From assembly GCA_905178155.1 (NCBI GenBank), contig CAJINV010000005.1:798564-862563 (forward strand): 64,000 bases of DNA. Direction: 5' to 3'. Both the position numbers and the translations under genes were made by a program. Positions 21,817 to 60,245 of this stretch are shown here, piece after piece. The stretch is from Amoebophrya sp. A120 (taxonomy: Eukaryota; Protista; Dinoflagellata). Every line of letters begins with the position of its first letter. The first letter of the stretch is position 1. A model generated the notes under the pieces. The model had not been told where the DNA came from and ran no database searches. It saw only the letters and a list, made by a program, of their open reading frames with translations.

Positions 21817-22324
21817 TGTAACAAAAAAGGTCCACCGACGGAAAAAAAAGAAACCTTTTTTCGATCAATAACACAGACATCCAAATTCGCCGCTCTTGCC
21901 GTGCTGTAGCGTCAGCGGCACACGAAATGCACATCCAGCTCGAGACAACTACTATGCTGGGATTCTTTGTCTTTTATTGCACTTACGGAATTTCAAGAAA
22001 ATATACGAATTCTCAAATGTGCCAGAAGGTGCTGTGTTCGCAAAAAGTGTCACTGCATCGAAAACCAAAAATCTTTGTTCGTGAAAAATCAGCAAGTCAA
22101 TGTAGGTACAGTGTCAGTTACGAAGTTGGTTCGCTGAAAGTGGGCGCGCGCTTAGTTTCATCACATCAACTTATCATTATCAACGGAGAGCGTGAAGATG
22201 ATCGTATCGCAACAACACTTACTGTATTTCAGAAATCGAAAATCTGTTTTTACTTTCTCTGTTTCATTTAAATACACAAAATTGCAAACCTACCTTGTTT
22301 CCTTAAAGCCTTCACAATGTGTGC

Positions 22325-32592: not shown

Positions 32593-35500
32593 TCACAACA
32601 ACTTTTTGTTGCCTTTCCTCTCCCACAGGAAACTGTTGCAAATGAATGTCCACCAGCAACTACTATCCTGTGTTCTCCTCACCCCCCGAGAATCAACGTG
32701 TGTGACTCGCTGGTCGACACCATCCGGACGTTGTGGGTCATCGTCGTGACCAAGGTCGGCGTGTACAGCACCCAGTCTTTTCCCTCGTCGTTGGGAAACC
32801 CGAGCTGCCCGTGCTGGTTGTTCCCGAAACACCACAGATGGCCGTGTCGGGTCACTAGAAACGTGTGGTTCGCGGCGGCGGCGGTCCAGCAGAAGTAGTT
32901 CCCGGGGTTCGGGACCCGTTTCGCGGTTCCTATGATTTGCAAAAGTGTCTGGGTCTGGAAGATTGCCAGACTTGTCATGGAGGTTTTCCATGACCCATGA
33001 GGTCTGGTATGTAGGACATAGCATGACAGATTCTGCGGGACCTTTCTAATACCTATCCTGCATGAGAAACTGCCTCTCGATTAGGTCAAAAGTGCGCAAC
33101 CTTTGGCAATCATTCAACACAGTTTTTTGCCTGATTCAGATCTAGCATGACAAGTTGCAATCATCCAGACCCAGACATTTTTGCAATCCATACTTCCGAG
33201 GAAGCCGCCAAACTCCTCGTTCAGGTTCATAAACGTCGGCCAAACGCTATTACGATGAAAAATGCCCCAACCCCGTAATTTGCAGAAGTTTGTCATGCAA
33301 AGTTTCCAAATGAAAGCTTTTTGTCTTGCACAAAAGGATTGCGAGCGTTTCTGATGCAGAATCTGGGTGCGCAAGGTGCCTTGTGCATAACAGATCCGGC
33401 TGCTGTTGGACTACTTCGCAACACAAATTTGACCTATTCAGCATGGAAAATTTGTGATGCTGAGATATGCAAGACGGGGAATGTTTCTGTTGGAAAGGTT
33501 TGCAATACAAATACTGCCAACCTGGGGGTGGGGGGGGCATTTTTCATTCTAATAAACCCGACCCGGGTCCTCCCGGCCCAAGCCCAACTGCCCGAACGCG
33601 TTGCTGCCCATCACCGCCACGCGCGGGTTGGCCCCCATGCGCAGGTTCTCGGTGATGATCACCGTGTGGTTGCTGCCACACGCGGTCATGACGTGCTTCT
33701 CCTCCGCGAGGCGGATCAGCTGTTGCGGGCGGTACTGGTCCGTGGACTTGCCGATTCCCAGTTGCCCGGCGGAGTTGCCGCCCCAGCCGTAGAATTTCCC
33801 GCTGTCGTCCAGGCCGATCACGTGCTCGTCGCCGCAGATAACCTGTTGTAGCGATTGGGTTATTTGTGATTAATTGTGTAGTACGGACAGGAAGCTTGAA
33901 AGTCAATAATTCTATCAGCTTGACGACATTCTTTCACGAACAATTCAGCACGCATTGATTCAGGATGTCGATGCAGGACATCAGGTACATCTACGTGCAC
34001 CTGAAATAAGAAGTGAATTGAAAGTTCATATTCATAGACACCTGTCGCCATCTAATTTTTTCCGGCAGCGCCATGGGCTGTGTGACGCTCCGCGGCAGCA
34101 TCTTCGAGCCTATCCTCATCAAATCTGTGTTTCGGAAATCCTTTGCGAACTGCGGGTTCTCCCCCAGACTCGGGTTCGCCGGCCCCCGTTTCCCGGGCGA
34201 CATGTTGTTTGCGCGCATGCCCTTCTGCAGCAGGGTTTGCGCGTCGAAATTTGTTTTGCGGGTCGCGTGCACGTGCGCCGTGTCGAGGGACATGTTTTCT
34301 ATCCCGAGCTTATTACAATGAAAAATGCCCCCACCCCCGAACTTGGGAGCATTTGTATTGCAAACCTTTCCAAATGAAACATTCGTCCTCTTGCATCTAT
34401 CAGCATCACAGGTTTCCAACCGTGAATAGCGAAAATTTGTATTGCAAAAGACCCCAGCAAGAGCGGCGCTTGTCATGCAAGCGATGCGATACACGTCAGA
34501 CTCTGCATCAGAATCAGAAAGATTCATACTCCTTTCATGCATGGCAAAAAGTTTTCATTTGGAAACTTCGCATCACAAATTTTTGCAATTTCAGGGGTGG
34601 GGGGCACTTTTCACTGTAATAGAGCTGCCCCCGGGAGTTGTCGCCGAAGACGTACAGCACCCCGTCGTCGTCGATCATGCAGGAGTATGGACTGCAAATA
34701 TGTCTGGGTCTGGAAGTAGAGTCATGCTGTTTTTGCATGACACGGTAGGTCTGGCATGGAAGCTCTAGCATCACAGGTTTCGAGAAGCTTCCGCAAAGCC
34801 GAATCCGCATGACAAATCCTCCACTTTGGTGACAGAGAGTGGGCAGCTTTTGCTACCTATGCATGAAAGATTTTTCTGTTTTCTGAAATGCGCATCACAA
34901 GTTTGTCTCCTTCCAGACCCAGACATATTTGCAATCAATAAGGAGAACCGGGCGCCCACCGCCACCTGCTTCATGGGGATCGTGCGGGTCATACGCAAAA
35001 GCACGGGCCGGGAATTTTGGTACACCGTGTGACTCCGGGAACCGTCCGGATTTCGGTTCCGCTCGTGGAATTTCGCCACGCCCTGGTGGTTGGGGTCAAT
35101 GGAGTCGAGCTCAAGCCCCAGGGCACCACAGGCGGAGGACCCGAACACGTAAACGCCACCTAGAAGAAGTAGTTTGGTGTTCAAAATTGAAAAATGAAAC
35201 TTGGGAGTTCAACTTCGGATCTGTTCTTTCTCCTCCATAAGAAAACAAAACTGAAAGTGAAACTCCGTAATTTTTTCAAAAAAAATTCTTATGAATATAC
35301 CATTGTTGCACAAGCAAAGGGTATGCGTCCCCGTTTTCGCGGTGGCGACTTGCACGACGTGCTCGTCTCTTGTCCCCCTCGACAGGTACGGCTCTGCCGT
35401 CCCGTGGATCTCACTCCGCAAGCCCAAACACAGCGCGCGGTTGGACCCGAAGGCCATCACGTTCCCACTTCCCGCCAGCAATGTGAAGGAGTGCGCGATC

Positions 35501-36012
35501 CCGGTCTGCAGTTGCACCACGTCCTTCCCGTGAAACCGCTCGATGTCCATGGGTCTCGTTTCCCCCCGGTACCGGAACTTGGTCCCCAGTTGCCCTTCAT
35601 TGCCATTCCCAAAACCGCGGACGACGCACTTCGCGCTGGGGACCTTCTCCTGCTCAATGCACTGGTAGCCTAATGTCATCATCCCCCTCCCGGCGTAGTT
35701 CGCGCGCCAGTCCCGCAATCTCGTGTCGGAATCCGCCAGTTGCGCGAGTTTCACCAGGTCCAGCTCCACGCCCTCGTCTTTCTTTTCACCTTCCTCTTTA
35801 TTGTGCTCGTCTCTCTCCGACTTGTTGTCACTGCTATGGTCGCTCAAATCGTCGCCGGAATGTTTTCTGCTCTTGCTGTCTGCGAGGCCGTGCTGCTCTT
35901 CTTGCGCGAGGGCGAAAATGTTGGACCACATCATCCCGTTGGATTCGAGAACGTCTACTCTCTCACCTGAGAGTTGAGTCATGTTTTTGCAATTTTTCAT
36001 GTTTATGATCAT
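32593..36012 (-). CDS. RCC1/BLIP-II repeat protein, multi-exon, carrying four introners
   Basis: Repeated GxNxxGQLG motifs (FGNGNEGQLG, WGGNSAGQLG, MGSNAFGQLG, FGNNQHGQLG). Excision of 34311-34621 rebuilds FGDNSRGQL|G. Gene ends are approximate. Confidence 0.88.
32931..33192. mobile_element. Introner-like TIR element, family A (262 bp)
   Basis: TIR tatg.(a)ttgcaaaa.tgtctgggtctgga; TSD gttcc/cttcc. Confidence 0.92.
33248..33554. mobile_element. Introner-like TIR element, family D (307 bp)
   Basis: TIR tatta..atgaaaaatgcccc..cccc; TSD aacgc/aaccc. Confidence 0.9.
34311..34621. mobile_element. Introner-like TIR element, family D (311 bp), inverted relative to the 33248 and 55065 copies
   Basis: TIR tattaca.tgaaaa.tgccccc.cccc; TSD gagct. 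Confidence 0.95.
34686..34940. mobile_element. Introner-like TIR element, family A (255 bp)
   Basis: TIR tat.ga.tgcaaatatgtctgggtctggaag; TSD aggag. Confidence 0.95.
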
Positions 36013-43200: not shown

Positions 43201-45230
43201 AGGTTCACGCGCCCCTGCCGCTGCTTTCGAAAAAGTCGTATTCATACCATCCGGATCCGGAAAAACGCCTCCTTCCTGTGACACCACCATGATGTGTTTT
43301 CTTCCGTGTGTTTTCTCCTGCAGCGACCGGCTGGACGGGCTGAGATCCTGGCCTAACTGGTCGACGGCGTGGACCTTGTGCGATTTGCCAGTGATAACCT
43401 CGTCGTCACGGAAGACCATGCCGTCGTAGTGGTCTTCTTCGTGGTCCACTCGGTGCTTCCCATGACCGATGAAACGGGGAAGACCTTTTGGTTTTTTTTT
43501 TGTGCTCCGCTTGTAGTGCAAGCAGTTGTACCAACAGTTTCTTCACATGCTTATTTTTCTTAGATTTTTCTATTATGAAAAAAAAAGTAGCCACATCGCT
43601 CCTCCATACCCGTATCGTCCACCAGGGAATCCTTTCCTATCGACCCATGCATGTGCTGCGACTGCCGGATCCCCAGCCCAGAATGCGCGTCGTAGTGGTC
43701 GTGCATCCCCTCCACTTTTTTCTTCCCTCGCACGGAATCGTGCGCCTCTTTCTCCGTTTCCTTGAAGGTCATCGTGCCGTTTTGGAAATGTGACCTGGCG
43801 CTGTTCATCTCGTCCCGGATTCCGTAGCCGTGTCGCTTTCCGTGCCCCACGTTCGCGTCGTAGCCAACCTCGTCACCCGGGTACACCATCTTTCCCTTGT
43901 AGTGGTCGTAGTAGGGTTGCTGCAGCCGCTCCACGCCCGCTTGGATGTGGTCGAACCCGCCGACGGGCAGGTGCATGTCCGGGTCGTATTTTGCCTTCCC
44001 CGCGGTCAGCATTTTCCGCGCCTCGGGCTGCTCCCGCACCACCTGCATGCCGCTGCCCCCGAGGTGGTGCTTGGGGGAGTGCTCCCCCGTACCGCGATGA
44101 AAAGCGCCCTCCTGCGGATCCTCGTATTCGTACCGGTTTTCCTGGTGCAAGTGGTGCGGTAGCCGGAGGTTTCCCGCGGCGGTTTCCGATTTCTTCGCCG
44201 GCTTGTACGGGGGACGGATGGAGTTCTGGTAGATTTCCTTCCCGTGCGCAAGCGTCCACTCGTCGTGCCGGACAATGTTCTTCGCAGTGCCATCTGGGTC
44301 GTAGTCCTGGTGACGAGCAGATGAGAGATGTGTTGAATGCGATAAAGTACTTAAAAGTAGTAAACGCGTACTATCATGTTAAATGGGCCTTTGTAGTATT
44401 GACCTTGTTTATTCCGATTTTTATTTCATAGGCACAAAACCCCTAAAAAGGAAGTACCCGCTCCTTCGTCCTCGGGCTTTTTGGCTCGTCCCGGTGCGGC
44501 CTGACGCCCATCCCGACTCCGACCAAGTGGTCCCTCCTCGCGTAGTCCACCCGATGCGGGAATCTGGACACAAACTCCTGGTCATCCACCTCCGCCCCCT
44601 CAGTTCTGGCCACGCCCGCGGTCTCGCCAATTTGGTGGTCGTGGTGGTGCTCCTCCTGCGCGGAGCGGTGGATCCGATCCGGATCGACTTCATGGTCCAC
44701 CTCGTACCCCTCGTTTTCCGCAATGGACCCGTAGGTGCCGCGTAAGTGATCGTGCTGATGGATGTCGTAGTCCTCCTTCGTCACGTTCGTGTGCCGCGCT
44801 ACGTGGTCAACCCCGTACGCCTCGTTTTGGGCGACACCGGCCGTCGTCCCATGCATGTGATCGTGCTGGTAAAGTTCCCGGTCGAACCGATGCATATCGT
44901 GCGCACGGTTGAACGGAGAGTCCTTGCGCGCCTCCGCACGGATATACTGCGTTAGTGTTTTTTGGAATATTTGATACATGACAAGCTGGCAAAGGTGTTG
45001 GTCTAACTGACTATCGCATCATTAAAACGACTTTACTCTATGACTCCTCTTACCCTGGGATCATCCGGCGTGATTGCGTCCTGGCCCAGTGTGAATTCAT
45101 CCGCGAATCGGGCAGAAGTCCTCGTGAAGTGCGGTCTCTCCTCTTCTTCCGGGTAGAAAAAGTTCGTCCTTCGGCCTCGAGGCGCGGTGTCCGGCCGCTT
45201 CGCCGGACTGTTGTTCCAGAAGTAGGCCAT
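40239..45230 (-). CDS. Multi-exon gene or genes encoding His/Gly-rich repeat protein
   Basis: GC3-rich exons (about 45040-45230, 44450-44945, 43570-44310, 43180-43485, 42050-42440, 41715-41900, 41330-41590, 40239-40830) with recurring (H/Q)DH(M/L/F)xG motifs. Gene number is unresolved. Confidence 0.55.
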
Positions 45231-46382
45231 ACTGTCGTGTTGTTTCTACGCCAGGTAAGCGACTTCTCTCGGCTCTCGAAATCTACACGATTGTCATCGT
45301 ACAATCCGATAATATTATCGAAGCACGATAAGAAGAAGAACCTAGAAGACATCACGATGATAAACGAGAGCAAATGTAGGGGATTCTCTCTGATGTGTCG
45401 TGAAACAAGAGTATCTCTACTCTCCGTCTCGGTCGAGTCGAGGAGATCGACGTCCAAACGCTCACGACACGTCCGAAACAACACGAAGACAAGTCCTGCC
45501 ACGGCGAAATGGCGTTCTACTTCTACGATTGCGCGATAGGTCCTTTCGTGGGTAAATTTGTCTTTACGAAGCAGCGTTCTTCAGTACAACTCGGAAGATA
45601 AACAGAAATTCAAATTCACTATGGTCTGATCGATCTTCAGCAGGGAAGTGGAGTAATGGTTTTCGAAACAGCGTTCGTGAGGAATGAGGAATTGCTCGTC
45701 TCGGCGTAGTATAATTCAACAAGTTTCGTTGTCCCCAGCCATGTAAACGAATTATGAAGCCATCGCACAACAATCTGTATGGCGTACAGATAAGAAGTTC
45801 ATGCGGCTCGTAGTGCTGTTCTCCGTGCAAAAAAATAGTCCGGGAACCAGTCACGATGCAGCCTTGGTACACATCAACTCTCGACCTTCTTCAACGCGCC
45901 CTGGTACACTGCCATGCTCCCGCTCAGCTTCACTTCTATCCTATCCTCTTGCCCGAGAGGCACTGCGCCAACAATCACCACATTGCACCGGTCGTCGACT
46001 TCGCTGAGGCTGTCGTCCAGATTCCAGGTCGGCCAAATTTTCCGCATACCGGTTCGGGCGTCCTCCGCGAGTCCCTGTGTCGTTATCGCGACGATAGCGC
46101 TTCTGTGCACCGGGGCTGTGGAGGTGGTCGTAAGAACATCCTCGTCTTTGATACCCAATGAACTGCGGAGAGAGCCGAAAAAGGCAGTCGCTTTTGCAAT
46201 GTTCCTTTCCTCGAAGGTGTGCCAGGTCTCGCTTCTCGTCGGGCGGCGCGAGCGACACAGGGGAAGGTTCCGAAACCACCTCTGGAAAAACCCTGTTATC
46301 CAGTATGTGCTTCAGAAAATTGGAAAGTTGGAATCAGTGGCTCTTCTAGAAGTAAAGAAAACTTCATGCGGAAAAAGGATAA

Positions 46383-47695
46383 GAGCCCGTACGATTAATC
46401 GACCCCCTTCTCGGTACCGAGAAGGGGGGGGTAGGTATGGTCGGTCGTCCGGCCTCCCCAAAAGTAGCCGACTCAGTCTAGCTCAATTCGCCGCCAAATC
46501 CAAAACGTGAGCGCGGAGCTTCCCCTCCCATAGCGCCAGGGATTAGGACTTGGCAAGTTTAAAGAGTATGGTTGTGCGCTGGTCGTGCGTTCTTATTGCC
46601 GTGCGCTAGCGTGGTTGGCTAGTAGCGTGGTTTCCACGTATACCCAGCGCGGTTTCTAATTCTATTTCTGGCGCAGCCACTTCTAAAAAGCCAGAGCAGA
46701 AATAAGCAGAAATCGCCACGCCGGCGCTGTCGTGGCTGCCGCTCCGGCTCCGCGACTGACTTCTAGTAGTTCTGATCCGACTGCGACTTGATTACCACCC
46801 TAGAACCAAACTAGAGTCAATAAGTAGGAGCGCCAGAAAATAATGAAGCTGAAGACCGCCCGCATTCGCACTTATCCATCTACTACACACTGCAAAGCAA
46901 AACCCCACGCGGAGGAGGTAGGCGCCCACTTTGAACCGAGCCGCGCTGCGTAATTTTAAAGAAGCCGAGCGGGCGCACTGGGGCAATGGCAAAAGTTGTC
47001 TCCACTCTCCTACTGCGCTTCGGTGACTTTTTTTCAAGAGGTGCGGCCTTTCAAGAAGAGGAACAAGAGGGGCGGAGCGTTTTTCGAAAGAAGCGCAAAT
47101 AAGGCCTATGCCAAAGAAAAGGCCGCAAGCTGCGCCAAAGAATTTCCGAGATCTACGGCAGACTAGATCTGTTCTTGTTTTAGTACACAACAGATCCAAT
47201 CCGCCACGCAGTGGAAAAGTTTTACTGCGCGCGGAGCGCATCCGTTGCGAACTGGCTGCGCTACTGCTCTCCGAAAGATGACGGCCTGATCGTCTTAGCG
47301 AGAACAGTGTGGGACATGGAAGGAAGCAGGTGGCTAAAAGCTGCCGAGCAAGTCGGGCGAAATAAAATTCGCTGGGTTCTGCTTGCTGTAAAAAAAACCG
47401 ACAGAAAGAGCAAAACGCGACACAGTGCGCGGGTTCCGTGTGTGTTTCTCTCGATGCGAGTCATGCTCTAAAGAGCGTTGGGGCCGCGCCTGCGGCCGCG
47501 ATTTTGAAAGCTGAAGAGAAGGAATAGTTGGCGCAAGATGCGCCGTAGCGTCGGCGTTAGGATTCGGAATCGGGGTGCGCGATAAACAGCCCCCCGATTT
47601 CGAGAAGGGGGGCGTTGGGGGGTAAGGTCGGTCAGAATCCGGACTCGGGGGGGCTTCTCGGTATCGAGAAGGGGGTCGATTAATCGTACAGGCTC
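46383..47695. mobile_element. Non-autonomous DNA transposon, PIF/Harbinger-like (1313 bp)
   Basis: ~41-bp TIR gagcc(c/t)gtacgattaatcgacccccttctcg(g/a)taccgagaag; 3-bp TSD taa (46380-46382, 47696-47698); no transposase ORF. Confidence 0.8.
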
Positions 47696-47698
47696 TAA

Positions 47699-49675
47699 TC
47701 AATAATCAAGCCTGGTACACGAAGCTGAGAAGCATGCATCTAAAGGCAAAATACACTTTCCCCCCCGTACCCGCGGTTCGTTCACGACCTGCAGGACAAC
47801 GGCACTGAAAGCCTGCCGCGACGAAAATGCCCAGTTCACGTCGCTCCTGCCGGGACAAAACTCAAACTGCGCTCCAAGTGCTTTGCTGCGCTGCACGAGG
47901 ATCGATTTTGCCACCGGATTCTTGTCGACCGTTATTCTCGGTATAGCCGTTCCTGCGATCTGGCTCTCACTTCCTCCGCTCGTCGACCCTGGTGTCAAGG
48001 ATTCTTCGGCCGCTATTTCTTCTCTGCAGCGATATGGCTCTAATCCAAGGCGCACAACCACCGGCCCACTCCATCTTATGGAAAAGTGCGTCTCCACGCC
48101 TTCAATGCACTTTTTCGTGCTGAAGGTTTCGGCGACTGGCAGCCCCGATATCTGCACTTTGAAAGAATTCGCTGATGCGTCCGGATGCGCCCCGTAGACT
48201 ATCCTCGTCGCGTTGGTGAGCTTTTGATCTGCTTCTGGGTGGAAAGAAAGCAGGTCCAGGAAAAATGTCTGGTCTTCGTCATCGAGTGCGCTGTCCGTCA
48301 CTGCAAGAGCGGCTCGAGAAAGCCATCGCTCCTCGGCTTTTTTCTGGATTGCTCGGATGTGTCTCTGCAGGCCGGAGATGTGAGGGAAGGTCAGGCCGCC
48401 GATAATAACCTCCCTCTGCGGTCGTTTTGCCCCGACGTAATAGCGCTGCAGGGGTGGATGAGCATCAAACAGCTTCTGGCACGTGTCTATCCACGCATTG
48501 TAGGACTCCAGGACGATGTGCTTGCATTTTTTCAACGCCCAGTCCGGAAGGAGAGGGCAAAATTGCACATCCGTTCCTTTGGGGTCGTGCCAGTTGAACC
48601 CTATTGGGCGCGGCGCAGCTGGTGCAATATTCTCGGTCGGAGAAGAAGACGACGAAACACCTCCCGCTTCTTCAAATTCGAGCGTGTATCTGAAGCGCGC
48701 ATTTCTCTCGAACTCCCTCGCAAACCTCCCTGGATCCAGTTTTTCCCACAGCAGATACCCCTCAAAGCCAACCAAAATTTCCTCCAGCTTCTCACTTTCT
48801 TCTTCTATCCGCTCCGCATCCCCACGCAGCACCAGATCCCATGGCTTAATCTCGGCGGCGCCGGAGAAGTGGATGATCTTCAGGTCTTGGAAGTATTTCG
48901 CGGTCTTTGCGTCCGGTTTCGAAAAAGTTTTTGGCTGCATGGCGTTGTACATCTGATGCAGCTGGTAGTTGTAAGCGCAATCCAGGTGGTGCCACCAGTC
49001 CCCAAAAAACCGGCTGATGTAATCCTGCTCGACCGCGTTGCCCTCGATGTGTCCGGGGTAGTTCTCATCCTTGATATTTCCCGCGATCTTCCGAAACAAA
49101 TCCTCGCTCGGCGTAAACAGCATCGTCCCCGCGTTGATTCCCCCTGACTGTCCCCAGCCCGGCTCCCGGTCCGATTTTCCGCGCGGCCCGAAAGACCAGT
49201 AGGAAGCATCAATCTGCGCTCCGTGCGCGCACCGGGCGCGTGGTCCGCGGCGCATCGCCGCGGGGGTCGTAGCTTCAAACACGGAAGTCAGATTGCCGAG
49301 ACACACCATGTCCAGGTCCAAGTGCAAAACCTTGCTATAGCGGTTTTCGAAGTGCTGACTCAAACAGTGGAACTTGCTAAAGACGTACTTAAAGCGCGGG
49401 GTCTTCGCTCCGAGCTTCGCGCAGGCCTGCAAATGGTCGAACTCGTACAAGTCTTGCCAAACCAGACGCAGCTGCGATTTGTGGTTCGCCGGGACGTTTT
49501 TTTCCACGAGGAGCTCCAGTCTCAGTCTTCCCGCGGCAATTTCGTCCTTGTGGTGGTCGCGCAGCGATTGACCGAGCACCAAAGCCCCGAGCACATAATC
49601 GGGATCCGTTCCCCAGATTGTTGCGCACACTGCGACAGGCCTGTTGGCTTGTTCTTCACAGGGCTGCCTCCCCTC
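47699..49675 (-). CDS. GT8 (glycogenin-like) glycosyltransferase plus DUF3223/DeCL-like domain; lacks its own ATG, probable 3' exon of the upstream RdRP gene
   Basis: GT8 motifs YVLGALVLGQSLR, YSKVLHLDLD (DxD), INAGTMLFTPS, EQDYISRFF and KIIHFSG..KPW. DUF3223-like LLSFHPEADQKL...HP...F.V...ETFSTKKCI at ~48100-48270. Confidence 0.85.
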   Translation of the reverse strand, partial: EGRQPCEEQANRPVAVCATIWGTDPDYVLGALVLGQSLRDHHKDEIAAGRLRLELLVEKNVPANHKSQLRLVWQDLYEFDHLQACAKLGAKTPRFKYVFSKFHCLSQHFENRYSKVLHLDLDMVCLGNLTSVFEATTPAAMRRGPRARCAHGAQIDASYWSFGPRGKSDREPGWGQSGGINAGTMLFTPSEDLFRKIAGNIKDENYPGHIEGNAVEQDYISRFFGDWWHHLDCAYNYQLHQMYNAMQPKTFSKPDAKTAKYFQDLKIIHFSGAAEIKPWDLVLRGDAERIEEESEKLEEILVGFEGYLLWEKLDPGRFAREFERNARFRYTLEFEEAGGVSSSSSPTENIAPAAPRPIGFNWHDPKGTDVQFCPLLPDWALKKCKHIVLESYNAWIDTCQKLFDAHPPLQRYYVGAKRPQREVIIGGLTFPHISGLQRHIRAIQKKAEERWLSRAALAVTDSALDDEDQTFFLDLLSFHPEADQKLTNATRIVYGAHPDASANSFKVQISGLPVAETFSTKKCIEGVETHFSIRWSGPVVVRLGLEPYRCREEIAAEESLTPGSTSGGSESQIAGTAIPRITVDKNPVAKSILVQRSKALGAQFEFCPGRSDVNWAFSSRQAFSAVVLQVVNEPRVRGGKCILPLDACFSASCTRLDY

Positions 49676-49694
49676 CTGTTTGGTTAAGATTGAT

Positions 49695-52600
49695 TCAGCT
49701 GAAGCATATCACTGAAGGTGAAGATGACACCAGAGAAAACATCACCCACTGTACGCAAAAGAAATGCAGGCATGACCTACATAGATGGAACTTACGTGCA
49801 CTAGTACTACGGTGAGAAATTGACTCAAACATCAACGCTGTTCTACTTACCAGCTCGCCGGGGCCCGTCGCGGCCTTCTCAATTCTCACAGCGATCGGCC
49901 TGGTGCAGTTGGGGCAAGTTGTGTTTGCTTGCAGTGTCCGCTCCTGACATGGCAGAACCTCTAGCGGAAGGCTCCTCATCGCATGCAGGGTGTACGGCTG
50001 TTCCGTCTCTTCATCAAGGCTGGGCATACCATGTGCGGCGTGAGATTTGTCACGAGCATTCGACTCGACGACGACTTGCAATGCGTTTGGCGACAGGTTC
50101 GTGTGTACCACCCTGAGCTCTCCAGCAGGAGCTGCGGTGTAGTTGTAGGTCGTATCTTCAGTCGGGTACTGCAAAGGAACAGCGACACTAGATTGCTGCA
50201 TTGCGTGCGGAAGCGGATTTGCCACTGCTCGGATCCGAAGTTTTGCTAAATCCTCTGCGAAGAAGTAAAAGACCGCCTTCAGCTCGTCCCAACCGTTGAA
50301 GGGACTCGGATTCGCGTTGCTTGGGGCGATGTTCCCGAGAACGCTTGAGCAAGCCGCTCGCAACAACGAAAGTAGCAACGCAGGGTCACCTCGGTGATTC
50401 TGAAACTCGTTGTCGGTGAGAGAAAACATGTAAACTCGTTGCTTCCCGTCACGATCGTCGGCTTTCGCCGCGCTTTCGACTTGTTGATACTGCTCCGTGC
50501 ATTTTTTCAAAAACAGCCTGCTTCCCTCTTCCGCGCGCGCGTTCGTGGCAGTGGTCGACGGCACGCCAGCCACTTGACGGCAATCGTAGTTGCTCAGAAA
50601 CCGCTCGACCGACCAGCTACCTCGCTCCGACGCGATGCTGCCCCGGCGAAACATCTTGTCGTAAAGCGGCCTCTTATTTTCGTATATCTTCCTCCCGCGC
50701 TGGTAGAGCCTGCCCAGTAGCCGGCCGCTCTGGTATGCCTTGTCATCTGGCTTGCGCTTTGCCGCAGCGTAGTAGTCCGGAAATTTTTTCGGATGGGCGG
50801 CGTACCCGGCTTTAGGCAGCCCGACCAGATCCCGCACGCGCTGCTCTTGCGCTGTGCTTAACTTGTTGTCCAGGCTGCACTTGAACAGCTTCGCAAGGGA
50901 CAGTGCCTTCAAAGTACCAAAATCGTTACGATCGACCTCCACTAGCCACTCGCCGTACAGCAAACCGGTGCGCTTGTCGTCGACGCACTTCTGGCAAATT
51001 TCGGCGCAGAGCTGTGCTGCCAACCCGGCTTCCGCTTCCCTTTCCAACTGATCCTCTGCTCGGCCCTCCAGGATGCGAACCATCTGGTCGTGTTTGTCCT
51101 GCTCCCCTCGTCTCAACGACGGTTCCCGCCTGACTGGCGGCAGGAGGGAGAGGATGCGGCTGTCGAAGGTAAACGTCGGCCGGTCCCCATCTTGGTCGCC
51201 GGACATCAGCACAGCATCGCAGTCGCCCACCGCGTCCTCCGGTGCAGCGCAGGTCAAGATGTTCTTCGTTGCAAAGCGCGCCGGCGTCGCGCCTTGATTT
51301 GCCACAGCGTCGCGCACGAGCAAATCGTCAGGCGTCACACTCGGCGGGCGGCAAATGGCTACGCGGCGGCTCCCGATCGCGCTTCCGTTGCAGTTGAAAC
51401 TCACCTCGCCATGCTTCAACGTTCGTGACCAGTCCGGCTCCATAAAGGCGGTATAGGTGTCTGCCAGGTAGGCTCGCCCCACCCCCGTGCCCTTTATGAG
51501 GAAGGGGGCGAGCCTGCGATTGTTGAAGTACCTGCATCCGAGCACTTGCAGAATCGGCGGGTCGGAAAAGTCGAAGCCGGCGTCGAGGAGTTTCGCCATG
51601 AAATCCAGCTCGTGACGCCAGTGCCCGGAGGTGAACTTCTTCTGCTCTTCTTCCACAGCGGCCCTGAATGTGCCCGCATCCTGCATGACGCGGTAGATCT
51701 TCTCGAGCTCTTCATCCTGCAGGGCTTCCAACACCCTCTGCAACTGCTCTTTGTTCTCGACGCCAACGTGGTACTCGAGCAGATTCACGAACTCGCGACT
51801 GATCCCGTCCTCCCGCGGCTTAATGTCGGAAACCGACACTCCCGCTGGTTTCAGTTCAAAAGTCCGCTCGCGATCGGAGGAGCGCGGCAAGGAAGCCCAC
51901 GGAATTTCGCACTTCGTCATCTCGTTCGCGAGATACAAGTTTTCGTCACTGTCGTCCCCATTCACCACCCACGTACCCTTGGCCAGGCCGATCTTGAACC
52001 TGCCCTGAAACGCGCTCGGAACGTAGTCCAAGCCGTACTCGCGCGCGATGCGTTTCGCCAAGGCACGCCCCATTTGCGAGGCGCCCTCCGTCTGACAGGA
52101 ACCACTTCTGCTGAACAGGTCGTCGATCTGCTTGATATTGTTTGCCGGAATGCCCACCGTAGGAACCGCCGTTGACATGCAAATTTTCTGAATTCGCTTG
52201 TCCAGCGTCTTCGCTTTTCGTAACCGATCAACCTCGAGCGAGTTCCCGCCCGTCATGTAGTGGAGAATGTCACTGATCGTATACGGCTGCATCGTCCCTC
52301 GGGCACACGTTTCCGCGAAAAACCAAACATCTGCGACGTTTTTGAAAAGTGTGCCGGAGACAGATGACGTCGTCGCCCTGGAGACGGTGCTGGAAGACGA
52401 GGCCGCACTTCTGATGGTGCAGGCCGAAGCTGTGGTGGTGTCCAAGCTGCTGGTGGTCCCGAGAAAACCAGATGAGGCATCGTCGCCCTTGCCGTCCTTA
52501 TCGCTGTCGCTTTTCTTGCACAGCGGAACCCAGGTCCGGCCGAGGAGTTCCATTTGCTTCGGAATCCATTTGTACGAATCATCTGGCCCGGTAAGCGATA

Positions 52601-53732
52601 CCCGGAGAAACCGGTCTTTGCCAAAAATCGTAAGCAAGTGCTTCTCACTGTTCTCCGCCTGCGTGTTGCCCACTTTCAAAATCTCCAGCTCCGGCTGACT
52701 GTAGTGGTTCGTCTGTCCGGTGATGCTCATGGTTGCGGTAAAGATGGGCTGACCCTTTCGCTGCGCTGCCGTTGTTCCAATAGCACGGTCCGCAGCGATG
52801 AACTTCCCATGTCCACAGAAAGTTGACTCGAACTTTCGCTCCTGAACCTCGGTGGTTTTTACGATGTCGGCTGCGCACTCGATTAGATGTCCGGCGCCAG
52901 AGGTACAAGATGAACTTGATGTAGCGCTCTGCACCGCCGCTCCCGGTGCTGGCGGCAGGAGGTCCGATGGGGTAGAGGCCCGCGTGACTGTTTGCGCGTC
53001 GGAGGGGTCTCGCATGATGGTCAGGGTGCTGACGTTGACACTGTCCTCCTCCAGCCGCGGAATTTCCGATAATTCGCTCGCGGTTGGGGTTGGCACGGGT
53101 GGGGGTGCAGGCGGTGCTGGTTCTGCGACGACGCCACTGGACACACCCTGGCCGCCGGCAGCAGCAGCATGGATGCGATTCCCCGGCTCGTTCTGCGAAA
53201 TGGAAATCGACAAGGAACTCGAGCTGCTCGCATTTGAGGCAGACGTGCCTGAGAGCGCGGCCGCTCCGCGCGAGGAGCAGCGGAAATTAATGAGCTGGAT
53301 CTCCGGAAAACTGGACTGCTCGTGAATGGCGGAGGCGGCTTTCCAGTCCTCGGAGAACGCAGTGCGCTCTTTGATCTTACTCCAAAGATTTTTGGCGAGG
53401 TCTACCTCTTTCAGTTTTTCCAGCAGGGCGACCTCTTTCACCGGCGTTCGGCCTCGCAGGTAGACCGCAACGTAAAAACGCCCAGCGGCTCCTGCGTCAG
53501 ACAGCTTAAATCGCTCCGGACATTCAGTAACCCGCACGGCGCGATCCAACACGAACAGTGAGCCGAGTGGAGAACGCGCCTCGCTCCTGCATTTCTTAAT
53601 GTAGATAAGCCGTACCGTGTCCGCAGGGGGGTCAAGCTCAACATGGACGCCGTACCTACGCAGTTCTTTGCACAGCTCATGCCAGTCGTAGGCATACGCA
53701 TGCCCTTCCTTCATCATCGAAGTACTCGACAT
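49695..53732 (-). CDS. Eukaryotic-type RNA-dependent RNA polymerase, copy 2, with C-terminal GRF-like Zn ribbon
   Basis: Motifs FGKDRFLRV, PSAFQGRF..AKGTW, EPDWSRTLKHGEV, VAICRPP and the catalytic MSGDQDGD (~51180-51207). C-terminal CPNC...GP...RKFHLCRSCLHFF..W. Confidence 0.88.
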   Translation of the reverse strand: MSSTSMMKEGHAYAYDWHELCKELRRYGVHVELDPPADTVRLIYIKKCRSEARSPLGSLFVLDRAVRVTECPERFKLSDAGAAGRFYVAVYLRGRTPVKEVALLEKLKEVDLAKNLWSKIKERTAFSEDWKAASAIHEQSSFPEIQLINFRCSSRGAAALSGTSASNASSSSSLSISISQNEPGNRIHAAAAGGQGVSSGVVAEPAPPAPPPVPTPTASELSEIPRLEEDSVNVSTLTIMRDPSDAQTVTRASTPSDLLPPAPGAAVQSATSSSSCTSGAGHLIECAADIVKTTEVQERKFESTFCGHGKFIAADRAIGTTAAQRKGQPIFTATMSITGQTNHYSQPELEILKVGNTQAENSEKHLLTIFGKDRFLRVSLTGPDDSYKWIPKQMELLGRTWVPLCKKSDSDKDGKGDDASSGFLGTTSSLDTTTASACTIRSAASSSSTVSRATTSSVSGTLFKNVADVWFFAETCARGTMQPYTISDILHYMTGGNSLEVDRLRKAKTLDKRIQKICMSTAVPTVGIPANNIKQIDDLFSRSGSCQTEGASQMGRALAKRIAREYGLDYVPSAFQGRFKIGLAKGTWVVNGDDSDENLYLANEMTKCEIPWASLPRSSDRERTFELKPAGVSVSDIKPREDGISREFVNLLEYHVGVENKEQLQRVLEALQDEELEKIYRVMQDAGTFRAAVEEEQKKFTSGHWRHELDFMAKLLDAGFDFSDPPILQVLGCRYFNNRRLAPFLIKGTGVGRAYLADTYTAFMEPDWSRTLKHGEVSFNCNGSAIGSRRVAICRPPSVTPDDLLVRDAVANQGATPARFATKNILTCAAPEDAVGDCDAVLMSGDQDGDRPTFTFDSRILSLLPPVRREPSLRRGEQDKHDQMVRILEGRAEDQLEREAEAGLAAQLCAEICQKCVDDKRTGLLYGEWLVEVDRNDFGTLKALSLAKLFKCSLDNKLSTAQEQRVRDLVGLPKAGYAAHPKKFPDYYAAAKRKPDDKAYQSGRLLGRLYQRGRKIYENKRPLYDKMFRRGSIASERGSWSVERFLSNYDCRQVAGVPSTTATNARAEEGSRLFLKKCTEQYQQVESAAKADDRDGKQRVYMFSLTDNEFQNHRGDPALLLSLLRAACSSVLGNIAPSNANPSPFNGWDELKAVFYFFAEDLAKLRIRAVANPLPHAMQQSSVAVPLQYPTEDTTYNYTAAPAGELRVVHTNLSPNALQVVVESNARDKSHAAHGMPSLDEETEQPYTLHAMRSLPLEVLPCQERTLQANTTCPNCTRPIAVRIEKAATGPGELVSRTALMFESISHRSTSARKFHLCRSCLHFFCVQWVMFSLVSSSPSVICFS

Positions 53733-54679
53733 CTTTTAGAAAAAATTTGCAGACGCTATTCCTATCACGAGAAAAAAAACACAAAAAAGCAGAGCCCCGG
53801 CTTGCCGCTAGTAGTGGAGGCCTCGTGCCAATAACCGGCTCATCTTTGCACATGAGAGTCCCAAGAAAAGACGCACTAATCTTGATGTAATTGTTCAGAA
53901 GTCTTTGTCTCAGTCTGTTGTGCGAAATGCATCGAAACAACCTGCTGGTCATTGTCATTGAACTGTGCAATTTCAAAGTAACTGAGACAAAAATCCCATG
54001 CACGATGACTTGCCATGAGACTACCCTGGAGAACAAGTTTCGCATCGTATTTCCTGGACCACAAGATCAGAGTTGTGCCTTTCCCTTGTAGTTATTCTGT
54101 CACTATTTATTGCGTCCTCATATCGGTGATCCAAAAACAAAACGCGCTCAGACACATTGCAAAGACACCAAAATCTTTTCATCGGTGACGAGAAGTAAAA
54201 GTCTACTACGTCAGAATTAACTTATGTTTACACCTTAGAAAAATCCAGAAGCTGCATTGCGGACTCCACATGAATCAGCTACTCCGACTGGCGAAGCCCT
54301 GCTCCACCGCTCTGCAGAGGCGGAGCAACTCGTTTATTCAACTCCTCTGCGGATTGGCACGAGCCTCACACCTTCGCTCCCATGCAACAAGGTTAAGATC
54401 TTCACCCTCACCAATTCCCCTTGGTACCAGTCCATCAGGCTCAGCAAGGGCGCCAAGGGACTCGGGCAACTCCGATATAAACAGGCACGGGGAGATATCC
54501 TTCGTAAAAACGTTTTCCCGCGACCCCAGAGTCATCAAAGGAGACGTCACTTCTTCTGGTACTTAGCAGACAACATATTCAGAAAATCTTTAAAGGAGTC
54601 CACATGACCAATATTCAACACATATCAACATATGCACTTGAGTCGTGCACGAGTAGCTTCGTCCTCCGGAAGGCCAAGA

Positions 54680-57053
54680 TTACCTTCGTTGAGCACGCCA
54701 ATGTTTCCCGAAAAAACTACGGTAGCAAGAAGTGCCTCTCATGGAAACCCGAAGCATACGAGCAACTTTCTGCACCCGGACGATTTCCATGACAACAAAC
54801 TCTAGATCGGAGAAATCTGTACGCAGGAGGATACCAATTGTCGGTGGGGCTTCTTCGGTCGAGACAGGTGATGAAGTGGAAGACGCAGCAGTTTCACCTC
54901 CTAGACACCCCCCGGACGACGCCGAGGCCGAGGACATGTGTTCCATCACCCGGTGCGTCTGTTGCAACTTTTGTTTGACGGTCTCTACAGTTTTCTCAAA
55001 TGTTCCGATCATGCCGATAACACCCCGAATGAACGCATCCGATTGCGTCTTCCCACACGACGTCCATTACAGTGAAAAGTGCCCCCCACCCCTCAAATTG
55101 TGATGCGAAGTTTCCAAAAGAAAACTTTTTGTCATGCATGAAAGGAGTATGAATCTTTCTGATGCAGAGTCTAGGCGTGTATCGCATCGCTTGCATGACA
55201 AGCGCCGCTCTTGCTGGGGTCTTTTGCAATACAAATTTTCGCTATTCACGATTGGAAACCTGTGATGCTGATAGGTGCAAGAGGGCGAAGATTTCATTTG
55301 GAAAGGTTTACAATACAAATTCTTTCAAGTTCGGGGGTGGGGGCATTTTTCATTCTGATAACGTCATCTTCAACACCAGCCCGGCTCTAGTATTGTCATT
55401 GTGCGACATCCCCAACATCAGAGTCAGTAGTGCTCCGACCGTGGAATAAAAACGCTCAAAATTCGGCTGGCGTGACTTTTTTTCCTCTTTGGTTCCGACT
55501 GTTGCGTTTCGTTTCCCGATTTGGCTTTCTAGCTCCGCGAAACGCTCAGCATAAAACCGCTCAGAATCTTCCGGCTGCCGTAACATTTTTCCCTGTTCGG
55601 TCCCGACTGTTGCGTTTCGTTTCCCGATTTGGCTTTCTAACTCTGCGAAACGCTCAGCATAAAACCGGTCAACATCTTCCGGCTGGCGTAAGATCTTTTT
55701 CTGTACCGCACCGCCTGTTGCGTTTTCTTTCCCGCGTTCTTGTAACACCGCGGAACGCTCAGAATCTGCCTCGCGTATTTTTAACATTTTATCCTGTTCG
55801 GCGCCGCCTGTTGGGTTCTTTCCTTTCCTGCTTTCTAACTCCACGTAGAATTGCTGAACTTCCTTTCCAAAGGAAGACACGACCGCCAGCAGAATCTCCT
55901 GTACATCTCCCGCGAAATTGCTCATCGTCATGCCCGCTGCGATTTGTGCTGTTGGGGTGCGGTGCTGACCTTGCTCTTGTCCAGCATCATTTTCATCCCC
56001 ATTCGAAGACATCGAGGAATCATCAGGCGCTTCTCGAATCTCTTCGAATCTTTCCCGGAAGGAAGGCTGTAGGCGACGTCGCGTCTCCAGCTGGGCGCGC
56101 GTGTCACTGACCGACATGCCGTGATCGTGCTGTGCAGGAGTTCCGCGGCGATTCAGAGTCCTTTGATCATCACCTTTCTCTTTTTCCTTTCCATTCGTCC
56201 ACCCCAAGGCAGGACAAAACTTGATCCCATTCTGGGACAAAAACTGGCGCGTTTCTCGCAGATACTTTCGCGTGTACACCGCTGCCTCGCACGTGCCGGC
56301 CAGTTTGTTTTTGTCTCGTAGGCGGAGCAAGTCTTGCACGCGGGTGTCAAAGAAGCTGACGTCAAGCATTTGGTCGAGGGAAAGGCAAAGAGCTCTCTCA
56401 ACGCCTTTGCTACTGTCCTCTTCGTCCCGAAGCTCCGCCGAGCGTAAGGCCTGGGACCATTTTTCCATTTTTGCCACCACGTTCTGGCGTTCGCTCATTT
56501 TCGGTCCTTTATAATAGTTGGAGAGTTTATGAATGGACGCAAGAGTAACGACCGCCTTGCCCGCCGTCCGCGGCGTCCTGTCCCCGTCCATGTCCGAACA
56601 AGCACAAAAATCGTCGCGCGGCAACGGCACCTGGTTTGCGGCCAGCGCTTGGATCGGTGTGTTGTGGGGGAGGACTGCGGGTTGTGGTTGTTCCTCTCGG
56701 TGTTCTACATGGTTCAGCGCGTTGTGGGGGACTGCGGGTTGTGGTTGTTCCTCCCGTTTTTCTCCAACCCTCTCCGCCAGATGGAGGTTTCCCATTTGTA
56801 TCGACAACTGATCAATATCCTCGTCGGCAGGAGCGGGGGAGTTATTTTCACCGGACTGCAAAAGCGCCCCAGCTGCCGCATCGTCCGAACTAGTACTAGT
56901 ACACGGGGCTTGCTGAGAAGTGTCGATAATTTCTGGGGCCGGAGCTGCTGACCGGGAGCGAAACTTTGTACTTTCGATCAGACGCACGCTCGCTAAGGCG
57001 ACAATCGCGGTCATCGACAGCGACTGACTCTTGAGAGTGAGTCTCAATCTCAT
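54680..57053 (-). CDS. Secreted hypothetical protein (~690 aa; exons 57053-55361, 55059-54680), paralog of 58155..59327
   Basis: Signal-like N-terminus; in-frame join KMT|SCGKTQ after element removal; conserved blocks shared with the neighbouring gene. Confidence 0.75.
55065..55360. mobile_element. Introner-like TIR element, family D (296 bp)
   Basis: Reverse-complement match to 34311-34621; TSD acgtc; left end cat instead of tat. Confidence 0.93.
55445..55850 (-). repeat. Coding tandem repeat, ~108-bp (36-aa) unit, 3-4 copies
   Basis: gttgcgttt recurs at 55501, 55609 and 55717; peptide unit RQPEDxxRFYAERFAELESQIGKRNATVGT. Confidence 0.85.
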
Positions 57054-58154
57054 TTTTGACGAATGACGATATAGAAAAAAAGCCTTTAGAATTGAGAGCT
57101 GTGTGGCTGCTATTGCATACATTCACACACCGAGGACACAATCTCGTAAAGAACAACTGACCCACAATTTGAAAAGAAGAAGAAGAGAGTTACAAGAATA
57201 TCAAAGCACTTAAGCCGCAAACAACCTTAAGCTACAACTTACCGTAAACAAGGTGGAAAGAATATATAATCACTTCCCCTGAACGAAGAGAGTATTTCCC
57301 TGAGGTAAATGTCTTTTTCATTGAAGGACTTCGCTGTGATCAACGACTACAGTGACCGTAGCAAAAACATGTAGCTAGACTAGTTACGCTGTCTCAAGAA
57401 CTATTCGATCATGATAGTCAAAAATAACCGCTGCTCCGACAAGATCCAACTGGATAGAGCCAGCCTTTGTCCAACACCAACAGCATCGTGCACCACCATT
57501 TTTTTCGATCAATTGTGCCACCAGCAACCAAAAGCAAGAATATGAATAGCTCCCATCCAGGCGTCGATAAAGATCCAGGAGCGGTTTTTACAGGGATCAA
57601 GTACGGCCAAGAGAGATTGCGCCATGTATTTCGACAGTCCGAGGGAATGTACGAGCTTCGAACACCTCATGTGCTGTTCCAGTCATCATCTTCCCGTGTC
57701 TCGGAAACAAAAAGTCAAAAGGAAAAGCTTCTTCTGCAAACATGACAGCTTCTGGTACGCCGGGCTCTCTTTCCTAGTTCCAGACGCACTTTCTTTCATC
57801 ATTCTAGGCGAAGCTATGCCTTCGTGCTTGCAAAGCTTCGTCATAGACATCCCCATCAACTGTGAAGGACCTGCGGCACCTTTGGCGCATCGGCTAGACT
57901 GCAGTTTGTTTTCCTTTTCGTTTATTGTTTTGGTTTTGCGTCTTTAAAAAATAACTTTTTCAGGAGAACAGCTATTTCACATACACATCCACCGTTCTTT
58001 ACAATATAATTTTTGCGCGCCACTCAGTGGCACATACGAGATGCTCCATGTTGCTGGGACATCTTTCACGATGCGTTGTTGCTGGTGCAACGCTTTTCTG
58101 CAGATCAATCATAGAAGACATCAACGCAGAAGTGTTCATTCCAGTGGAGCGGCT

Positions 58155-59327
58155 TCATTGATTTCTGCGAGATACCAATTGCATTTGCCGTGCTATCTCT
58201 TCTGCGTGCCATGCCAGTGGACCCCGTAAGGGCTCCAAGGGGCTTTCGCACTCTTCCTGCGTGACACGCCGGAGCCACTCCGATTTCGATTGTTGCAGGG
58301 ATGGGTCCTGAATGAATTTACGCGAGGCATAATCGACTTTGCCTTTCATTCCATCTCCGATATCATGCCGCCAGTTCCAATCATGATACTTCTCCATGGT
58401 GAAAGTTTGAAGCCGTTGCACTTTCCTCTCAACGGTATCGACTGTTTCCGCAAATCCAGCAAGCAAGTGCAGCAACTCAGCACTTTTCAAAGTGGCAGCC
58501 TGGTGCCCTCGGCCGATCTTCCCCAGGCCCGGCGCGCACGACGTCATGGTCATCTGCAGATCTGTACTATTCCGCGACATCTCCCCGATCAAGCTCAGAA
58601 GCGCCACGACCTTGTAGGAAAAACGCGCGTAATCTGGCGTCTGGGGCTCTGCCACATCCTCGGGGGGATCATCACGCTCATCGAGAAACGCATTCCTCCA
58701 TAAGTAATGGCTCTTAACTTGAACCTCGAACCTTGACACGACAGACAACAGAGTCTCCTGCGCATGCACCGCAAAATTGTTCTGCGTCAACACGGCATGA
58801 TCACCTTGACAGGCAAAAGCTTCAGCACTTCCTTGCTTTTGATCTCCACACCCGCTCTTCTGTACTAGGAAAGGCAGGAGGTGGGCCACCGTGACACGCT
58901 CGTGCTCGCACTGGAGCTGCGAAAGCCACAAGCTCTTCGACAGTACTTCCTGTCCTCGAGCAGCTTGTTCGTCTTGCTGTGCTACCAACTCCTCGGCAGC
59001 GGAAAAGATCTTTCGTGCCTGTTCGAGGGGGTGCATGTTCGCTGCTGGACAAGTGGCGGACAACTTGTATTTGTCCGGGGCGTTCAGAAGGTCTTGCATG
59101 CGGCTGTCAAAACACTCAAGAGCGAGAACTTCTTTGCCGAGGAATTTCTTGCGCTCTTCTCCTTCTTTCAGGTGGCAGCCTCCCATCTGAAGTGCCAACT
59201 TGCTGATGCACTGCCCCACTTGCTGAGAGCGAGCACGAAATCCCGCACATTCGATCAGACACACATTCCCGAAAGCGAGAATCACGGCCAGTCGTGCCCA
59301 CGCGGATTGGGCGAACCCCAACTTCAT
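58155..59327 (-). CDS. Secreted hypothetical protein (~390 aa), paralog of 54680..57053
   Basis: Signal MKLGFAQSAWARLAVILAFGNVCLIECAG; shared blocks FDSRMQDLL..DKYKLSATC, NFAVHAQETLLSVVSRF and MTSC. Confidence 0.75.
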   Translation of the reverse strand: MKLGFAQSAWARLAVILAFGNVCLIECAGFRARSQQVGQCISKLALQMGGCHLKEGEERKKFLGKEVLALECFDSRMQDLLNAPDKYKLSATCPAANMHPLEQARKIFSAAEELVAQQDEQAARGQEVLSKSLWLSQLQCEHERVTVAHLLPFLVQKSGCGDQKQGSAEAFACQGDHAVLTQNNFAVHAQETLLSVVSRFEVQVKSHYLWRNAFLDERDDPPEDVAEPQTPDYARFSYKVVALLSLIGEMSRNSTDLQMTMTSCAPGLGKIGRGHQAATLKSAELLHLLAGFAETVDTVERKVQRLQTFTMEKYHDWNWRHDIGDGMKGKVDYASRKFIQDPSLQQSKSEWLRRVTQEECESPLEPLRGPLAWHAEEIARQMQLVSRRNQ

Positions 59328-60245
59328 TCTTGATGCTTTTTTGCTATGAATTGACTCGGGTACAATTGATGCGGCTGCGCAAACGTAAAGTAAATACTTA
59401 TAAATTTTTTTTTCATCTAAAACGATAGAAAACAACTTTGTAATCTAATCATACACTTCTTCGACGACTTCAGCCCGTCTCGAGGAGGGGTTTCAAATTA
59501 CGCGAAGTTTGCAAAAAAGCCAATGCGTGCGAAGGAGAAGAAAAATTTGAGTAGTCCAGAAATTCTGCCACAAGTGAAGACTTCTAATCCCTGTATCTTC
59601 ACGATGTCGTTCCAGAGAATCAATTGCAACAGCGCCCTAGCGGTGTTCTATCTTCATCGAAAGACTTTGCGAGTACTTATCCCAGCATCTTCTGGACAAT
59701 CCGTTGATCAAACAGCGATACAACATGTCACTATCCATTCGTCGATGATCGTAACTCGTAGCAAGTTACTGTTCTTTGCCCTAGATCAGATAGAATGACT
59801 GTATGTCAGTCGCCCTAGCACAGAAACAGCAACTCGAAGATCCAGGAACGTTTCAGCACTCACAAGTACGCCGGTGGAACGCTTTTTGCTGCAGGTTATG
59901 TACTTGCACATGAACTACGAGCGATGTCCTGGCTTGTTCGGACATCTGCATTCTTGCAGTGCTGTTCCAATCTACATCTTGCCAGTAGATGTCGTTGTCT
60001 AGATCTAAGTAGTTCTAGTACTCACTTGGATATAAAACGTTCCTTCATAATGCTGGTGCGGTGCTCGCTGTCGCTCCCTTACCAGCACGTCGTGAAAATG
60101 ACTTGTACAGGACCGTCTTTTATTTGCATACGTAGTTCTTTCCTTTCAACATTCGACAAGAAATTCACTTGCGTCGGAAGATAAATTCCGTATCTGGAAT
60201 GGAACTTCTTTGATCGCTTCCTTATCCTCCTGCACTGCGCTTTCG

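Follow-up and report, generated by a model that had tools for sequence, protein, structure and literature searches.

In Amoebophrya sp. A120, a gene of three exons very probably fuses an RNA-dependent RNA polymerase to a GT8 glycosyltransferase and a DUF3223 domain

Results

We studied a window of 64,000 nucleotides (the whole stretch of DNA analyzed here) from the parasitic marine dinoflagellate Amoebophrya sp. A120 (GenBank assembly GCA_905178155.1, contig CAJINV010000005.1, positions 798,564 to 862,563 of the forward strand); all positions given below are those of the window. On its minus strand, an open reading frame (ORF) of 1,346 codons for RNA-dependent RNA polymerase (RdRP; 53735-49695, stop codon at 49697-49695) is followed by a frame of 669 codons for a GT8 glycosyltransferase and a DUF3223 domain (49708-47699). 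A first-pass annotation, made from the letters alone, had pointed out that the second frame has no ATG ahead of the GT8 domain and had proposed that an intron joins the two frames into one polypeptide. The first in-frame Met is indeed residue 134 of that frame, which falls within the GT8 domain where the DxD strand ends. When three exons are joined, the translation is free of stops for 2,073 amino acid residues, up to a final stop codon at 45876-45874, and the fusion itself is very probably real.

Exon 1 (49851-53732, residues 1-1294) encodes an N-terminal region (residues 1-362), the RdRP, and the head of the GT8 unit. Its 1,294 codons are open and coding-like throughout, with coding-type codon bias, and RNA contigs from X1-X4, four runs of one sample that were available as contigs only and were aligned to the locus, are scattered along it. 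Intron 1 (49676-49850; 175 nucleotides, GT-AG, phase 0) contains the stop codon of the RdRP frame and a stretch reading HLCRSC. Exon 2 (47755-49675, residues 1295-1934) encodes the GT8 domain, a helical linker, DUF3223, and the start of the C-terminal region. Intron 2 (46293-47754; 1,462 nucleotides, GT-AG, phase 1) precedes exon 3 (45874-46292), which encodes residues 1935-2073 and the stop codon and has no family match. The earlier end of the gene at 47699 and length of 1950-1990 residues must be revised, as intron 2 and the third exon had been missed. An assembly error at the 49695 stop was considered and is not indicated by a DNA contig that spans 47667-54500 without any difference, although its run may be the window's own source.

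A single database protein, P0001 (639 residues, labelled Amoebophrya sp. A120), is identical to exon 2. Its public model begins at nucleotide 49255, past the DxD motif, so that half of the GT8 active site is absent from it; the public model is therefore truncated. No transmembrane stretch or membrane anchor was found in the fused protein. The region 44000-56000 of the window holds no Rfam family, and a PHROGs search with six proteins gave no families.

As judged by comparison with its relatives, the GT8 unit starts inside the RdRP frame. We collected 87 GT8 relatives (19 proteins and 68 loci) from eukaryotic transcriptomes and marine metagenomes. A CPxCxRP motif lies just N-terminal of the GT8 domain in 53 of them and in none of 97 RdRP matches. 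Among the window ORFs, this pattern occurs at two places in 87,256 residues, one of which is CPNCTRP at residues 1273-1279 (49896-49916), encoded in the RdRP exon. With the donor at 49850, CPxCxRP stands 120 residues from the downstream F[TS]K[LF] motif, and this distance is 106-125 in 45 of 51 relatives (median near 111); 68 of the 87 relatives were long enough to be scored, and 17 of those lack the motif. A profile of the GT8 head ranked the RdRP ORF first of 965 ORFs (E 0.003, or E 0.03 with a wider set). Exon 2 lacks 13 family-conserved columns, four of which belong to the CPxCxRP motif, and neither a stop codon nor a non-coding patch lies between the RdRP and the motif. The two 'genes' therefore share one frame, as a GT8-family motif stands at its normal distance within the exon of the RdRP. 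No significant match came from a profile of RdRP C-termini; thus, the boundary between RdRP and GT8 is only approximate, at about residues 1170-1265.

Run X4 represents spliced RNA: three GT-AG introns retained in the DNA run X5 are missing from it. Contig 30 of X4 (186 nucleotides, depth 5.2) aligns to 49850-50022, and its 13 loose letters equal 49662-49674, a 13-mer that is unique in the window. The contig crosses the junction 49851/49675, which the first-pass annotation had predicted, and it weakly supports the joining of the RdRP frame to the GT8 exon. It is not listed as a joint: the bar for a bridging record was 31 letters, and the short side of contig 30 has 13-14. Intron 1 is intron-like in composition (GC 0.42, T 0.35) and has a negative codon score and GTAAGT...AAACAG ends; it is unspliced in X5. 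The branch-like CTTAAC and the AAACAG acceptor ending at 49676, both reported in the first-pass annotation, are present, though this string is not rare by itself. For intron 2, the splice in X4 has 255 letters on each side, and loose ends occur in X1, X2, and X4. At low overall depth, none of the X1-X4 contigs listed (32 of 45 pieces) covers 49668-49849, and contig cover falls from 3' to 5' along the gene; neither was counted as evidence. Raw RNA reads of runs X7 and X8, which carry the same species label, gave no alignments to the locus, a result to which we give no weight. We consider it probable that a full-length fusion mRNA exists at all.

Two phase-0 donors had been offered for intron 1. 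GTAAGT at 49850 is in frame and is the one used in the X4 junction contig. No RNA supports GTGATG at 49745, the use of which would insert 35 codons with the composition of an intron (GC 0.43, T 0.37, negative codon score) and lengthen the motif spacing to 155, away from the median of the relatives. This donor had been described as keeping a GRF-like Zn ribbon intact, but the second CxxC of that ribbon (HLCRSC) is intronic, the first is the GT8-family motif, and there is no Pfam match. The idea of one RdRP-GT8-DUF3223 polypeptide thus gains the junction contig and a GT8 N-terminal motif in the RdRP exon, and loses its zinc ribbon and its exon count. The Pfam profiles proposed for checking it (PF05183, PF01501, and PF11523) all match above their cut-offs.

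Intron 2 contains a repeat element (46378-47700) with 47-nucleotide terminal inverted repeats that are 94% complementary. The element resembles a miniature inverted-repeat transposable element: it contains palindromes, X5 has many diverged copies of it, and similar-looking ends appear in RNA contigs. We rejected its assignment as an Amoebophrya introner: introners are defined by inverted repeats of 8-20 nucleotides at the intron ends and direct repeats over the boundaries (PMC7789003), whereas the 47-nucleotide repeats sit 54 and 85 nucleotides inside the splice sites.

The RdRP domain (PF05183; 50700-52646, residues 363-1011) matches with E 1.7e-39 (136.5 bits against a cut-off of 23.8). It retains 29 of 36 columns conserved in 11 relatives, including the three aspartates of the catalytic DxDGD loop (51183-51197, residues 846-850), which reads DQDGD here; DYDGD accounts for 60 of the 72 motifs found among the 97 matches. 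The best non-self RdRP match among 1.84 billion representatives has E 2e-17 and 29% identity. QDE-1 is the best PDB match by sequence (E 2.5e-11; RDR2, 2.8e-4) and also by fold, the latter with a model that is of low confidence and stems from an alignment in which QDE-1-like rows abound. A quick tree of 68 rows, made without named reference sequences, groups the fused RdRP with P0024, P0025, P0026, and P0029 (Shimodaira-Hasegawa-like approximate likelihood ratio support of 95) on long branches. No close relatives were found in metagenome contigs or in viral contigs.

On these comparisons, the polymerase appears to be QDE-1-like with its catalytic aspartates in place. It shares the Pfam match, the DxDGD loop, and the best solved sequence and fold match with QDE-1 and related cell-encoded RdRPs (PDB 2J7N, 5FSW, and 7Y7R). 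It differs from them in having DQDGD instead of DYDGD, in showing less than 30% identity to any relative, and in about 800 added residues that hold GT8 and DUF3223, whereas the 25 scanned relatives are RdRP alone. QDE-1 is described as copying both single-stranded RNA and single-stranded DNA and as requiring the first aspartate of its motif (PMC4861493).

The window contains a second RDR-type RdRP (17128-21864, minus strand), which is unfused and lies 24 kb from the fused gene. Its frame of 1,579 codons has a DMDGD loop and a Pfam match of E 4.8e-42; the last 1,282 residues are P0026, and it is 22% identical to the fused RdRP.

The GT8 domain (PF01501; 48836-49612, residues 1316-1574) matches with E 1.1e-11 (45.2 bits against a cut-off of 24.3). 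It retains the DxD (residues 1414-1416), the EQD at 1510, and the metal-binding histidine of HxSG at 1563. The structure model is good here, with exon-2 residues 11-290 mostly at a predicted local distance difference test score (pLDDT) of 70-97. Its closest folds are glycogenin (Z 24.4, root-mean-square deviation 3.0, 251 residues) and Gat1 (Z 21.4, 3.0, 224 residues), both ahead of LgtC and others, with Gat1 scoring lower than glycogenin. The ESM Atlas returned exon 2 as a generic GT8, and a quick GT8 tree, limited to the 50 of 88 rows that have a full core, placed the query on a long branch and did not resolve its position.

Like glycogenin and Gat1 (CAZy GT8), the fused GT8 has a GT-A fold, the DxD and histidine, and no membrane anchor; it differs in its 20-24% identity, its additional CPxCxRP head and inserts, and the attached polymerase. 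Gat1, a single-domain enzyme unlike the multi-domain protein here, uses the Skp1 glycan as its galactose acceptor, glycogenin acts on itself and has a C-terminal segment that binds glycogen synthase, and both use DxD and the histidine (10.1101/764241). As these are the nearest solved enzymes, a protein or glycan acceptor is pointed to, not RNA, and the sugar is likely put on protein. The first-pass annotation had entertained RNA as a sugar acceptor, for which we found nothing in support. By manual reading, Tyr 1537 stands in the register of the glycogenin 194/195 acceptor; the HMMER alignment differs from this reading by two places.

The closest relatives of the GT8 half are the dinoflagellate-type CPxCxRP-GT8 family (P0002-P0020 and L002-L068), with 29-42% identity in the best segment and the same motifs and spacing. 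None of them has an RdRP in the protein or the examined DNA, and their tails are unlike that of the window protein and vary among themselves. One relative (L016:11-2473) combines a sub-threshold Agenet match with two S1 RNA-binding domains (E 1.2e-20), which ties the family to RNA binding a second time, and several others have sub-threshold Agenet matches. P0008-P0018 and L032 form a tight subgroup that is intron-free, lies on contigs of up to 537 kb, and has a C-terminal Agenet/Tudor-like region below the Pfam cut-off. A distant viral GT8 with an unrelated layout was seen on a giant-virus-like contig (L001:6213-8825), which has two GT8 genes, one with an N-terminal extension of 600 residues, beside a putative capsid-like gene.

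The DUF3223 (DeCL) domain (48104-48292, residues 1756-1818) matches PF11523 at 24.3 bits, a narrow margin over the cut-off of 21, and covers profile positions 11-75 of 75. Beyond exon-2 residue 416, DUF3223 included, the structure model has a pLDDT below 50. DUF3223 corresponds to the DeCL domain of NRPD1 and NRPE1 (PMC11194755), the largest subunits of the plant polymerases Pol IV and Pol V, and the DeCL of Pol V has been reported to bind RRP6L1 (10.1101/111831). The plant proteins are likewise silencing-type double-barrel polymerases with a C-terminal DUF3223/DeCL. In contrast, the window protein has a single-subunit RdRP rather than a Pol II derivative, has GT8 in between, and has no AGO-hook array (GW/WG at four positions); the likeness would be convergence at most. 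The first 360 and the last 250 residues of the fused protein have no family match, and the C-terminal 215 residues gave nothing above 0.80 in the ESM Atlas. The C-terminus did not match the tails of the GT8 relatives either.

The first-pass annotation had suggested a search for the same architecture in Syndiniales and other dinoflagellates. None was found: GT8 occurs in none of the 97 RdRP relatives by profile (25 of them also by Pfam), RdRP in none of the six-frame translations of the 68 GT8 loci, mostly short contigs or transcripts, and DUF3223 in none of 49 GT8 relatives scanned by Pfam (19 and 30). Word-index searches for long GT8 relatives (1121-3200 residues) and RdRP relatives (711-2265 residues) also gave none, which is weak evidence. 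No fused relative was found in the sequence databases searched; other Amoebophrya genomes were not directly searched, and absence there is not implied. The literature searched gave no description of an RdRP-glycosyltransferase architecture, the nearest returns being plant Pol IV/V. The architecture appears to be new and made from known parts, as seen in one genome. RdRP-domain and Argonaute proteins have been noted in core dinoflagellates (PMC6027434), and the main text of the Amoebophrya genome paper makes no mention of an RNA-dependent polymerase, Argonaute, or Dicer (PMC7789003).

Among the other features of the window, a gene rich in His/Asp repeats (44306-45053, minus strand) is covered by X4 contigs at depth 102-146 and has two RNA-confirmed GT-AG introns (44307-44457 and 44947-45053); the frame scanned has no Pfam match. 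Upstream of the fused gene, two ORFs (55353-57122 and 58158-59444, minus strand) have similar-looking C-termini and N-terminal hydrophobic stretches, and are possibly tandem paralogues without Pfam matches; the former has internal repeats. An RbfA-like frame below the cut-off (15069-16394) and an RCC1-repeat frame (35212-36012) also lie on the minus strand.

Discussion

The explanation that we favour, with a case that we judge to be evenly balanced, is that of a lineage-specific fusion that yields one soluble protein of 2,073 residues with two live active sites. In the three-exon gene, splicing would attach a glycogenin/Gat1-like GT8 exon to an RdRP frame that resembles QDE-1. The polymerase would make RNA for silencing from single-stranded RNA or DNA templates, GT8 would move a hexose from a UDP-sugar to a protein-linked acceptor (a partner or the fused protein), and DUF3223 would serve as a docking site for a partner protein. 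The gene may have originated in the A120 lineage when a spare RdRP paralogue was joined head to tail to a GT8 gene that lay next to it in the same orientation; 98.5% of A120 genes are reported to lie in co-oriented blocks (PMC7789003).

Several observations weigh against this explanation. Seven of the 36 conserved RdRP columns are changed, in comparison with 0-4 in the 11 other rows, the RdRP structure model is poor (pLDDT 53), and the fused RdRP stands on a long branch in the quick tree. The acceptor tyrosine is uncertain, as Tyr is found at the 1537 position in just four of 66 family members. For the junction 49851/49675, the evidence is a single contig from one sample, below the bar on the GT8 side; this contig extends just 173 nucleotides into exon 1, and no record spanning both the RdRP domain and GT8 was found among the X1-X4 contigs. 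In-frame Met residues at 1178, 1236, and 1252 could begin a GT8-only protein; they lie 95, 37, and 21 residues before the motif, and in the relatives this distance is 28-229 (48 proteins). As no fused relative was found in the databases searched, there is also no sign of selection for the RdRP-GT8 link.

The last points raise the question of whether two overlapping units, rather than one, are transcribed. A GT8-DUF3223 mRNA starting from Met 1178 or later would splice intron 1, an RdRP mRNA would keep intron 1 and stop at 49695, and the full fusion would be minor or absent. The short reach of the junction contig (49850-50022), the Met-to-motif distances, which fit those of GT8 relatives, and the separate state of every relative found agree with this arrangement, as does the ending of the listed X4 exon-1 contigs at 50284, the same base at which an X2 contig ends (one sample, possibly the same fragment). 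However, an X1 contig (49875-50353) and an X3 contig (to 50326) pass Met 1178 (50201), and RdRP-region contigs are present in X1-X3. The supposed start region is coding-like in the RdRP frame and has no AT-rich gap, intron 1 is non-coding in composition, and A120 is described as having no evidence of polycistronic co-regulation (PMC7789003). We regard overlapping units as unlikely. Slightly less likely still is a passive fusion, in which GT8 does the ordinary job of its family and the RdRP is a drifting passenger (or the reverse), with silencing left to the unfused paralogue at 17128-21864. The occurrence in a single genome, the changed RdRP columns, the long branches of both halves, the presence of a second RdRP within the window, and the several different tails of GT8 relatives would suit a passenger. 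Against this, 1,294 codons have stayed open with coding-type bias, the RdRP retains its catalytic aspartates and the majority of its invariant residues, and fast protein evolution has been reported as general in these genomes (PMC7789003). The paralogue is only 22% identical; therefore, the fused copy kept its active site through a long divergence.

The acceptor could also be a nucleic acid. Certain GT-A enzymes of phages attach sugars to modified DNA bases, and dinoflagellate DNA contains 5-hydroxymethyluracil. GT8 might mark the nucleic acid template or product of the RdRP, and a single chain would couple synthesis with sugar marking, a reading that we consider quite improbable. It is favoured by the tethering of GT8 to a polymerase and a DeCL, as found on Pol IV/V (PMC11194755), by the two S1 domains of L016, which are above the cut-off, by Agenet/Tudor-like matches in seven of 20 and two of 30 scanned proteins (all below the cut-off), and by the transmembrane-like head in just four of 48 GT8 relatives. 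However, the nearest solved enzymes use protein-linked or glycan acceptors, and the GT8 family is stand-alone in every other case found. Equally doubtful is the bolder picture of a single-chain silencing machine, in which the QDE-1-like polymerase copies repeats, GT8 adds sugar to the nucleic acid copied or made, and DeCL recruits an exonuclease as in Pol V. If that were true, the wider CPxCxRP-GT8 family, in which S1 and Tudor-like tails occur, would be a class of glycosyltransferases directed to nucleic acids or silencing complexes.

Conclusions

The weight of this finding is limited by its occurrence in one genome and by thin RNA support. The public gene model is corrected, and the gene would provide a case, from outside plants, of a silencing polymerase that carries a DeCL. 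The fusion also offers a route to ask what a widespread GT8 family of marine protists glycosylates.

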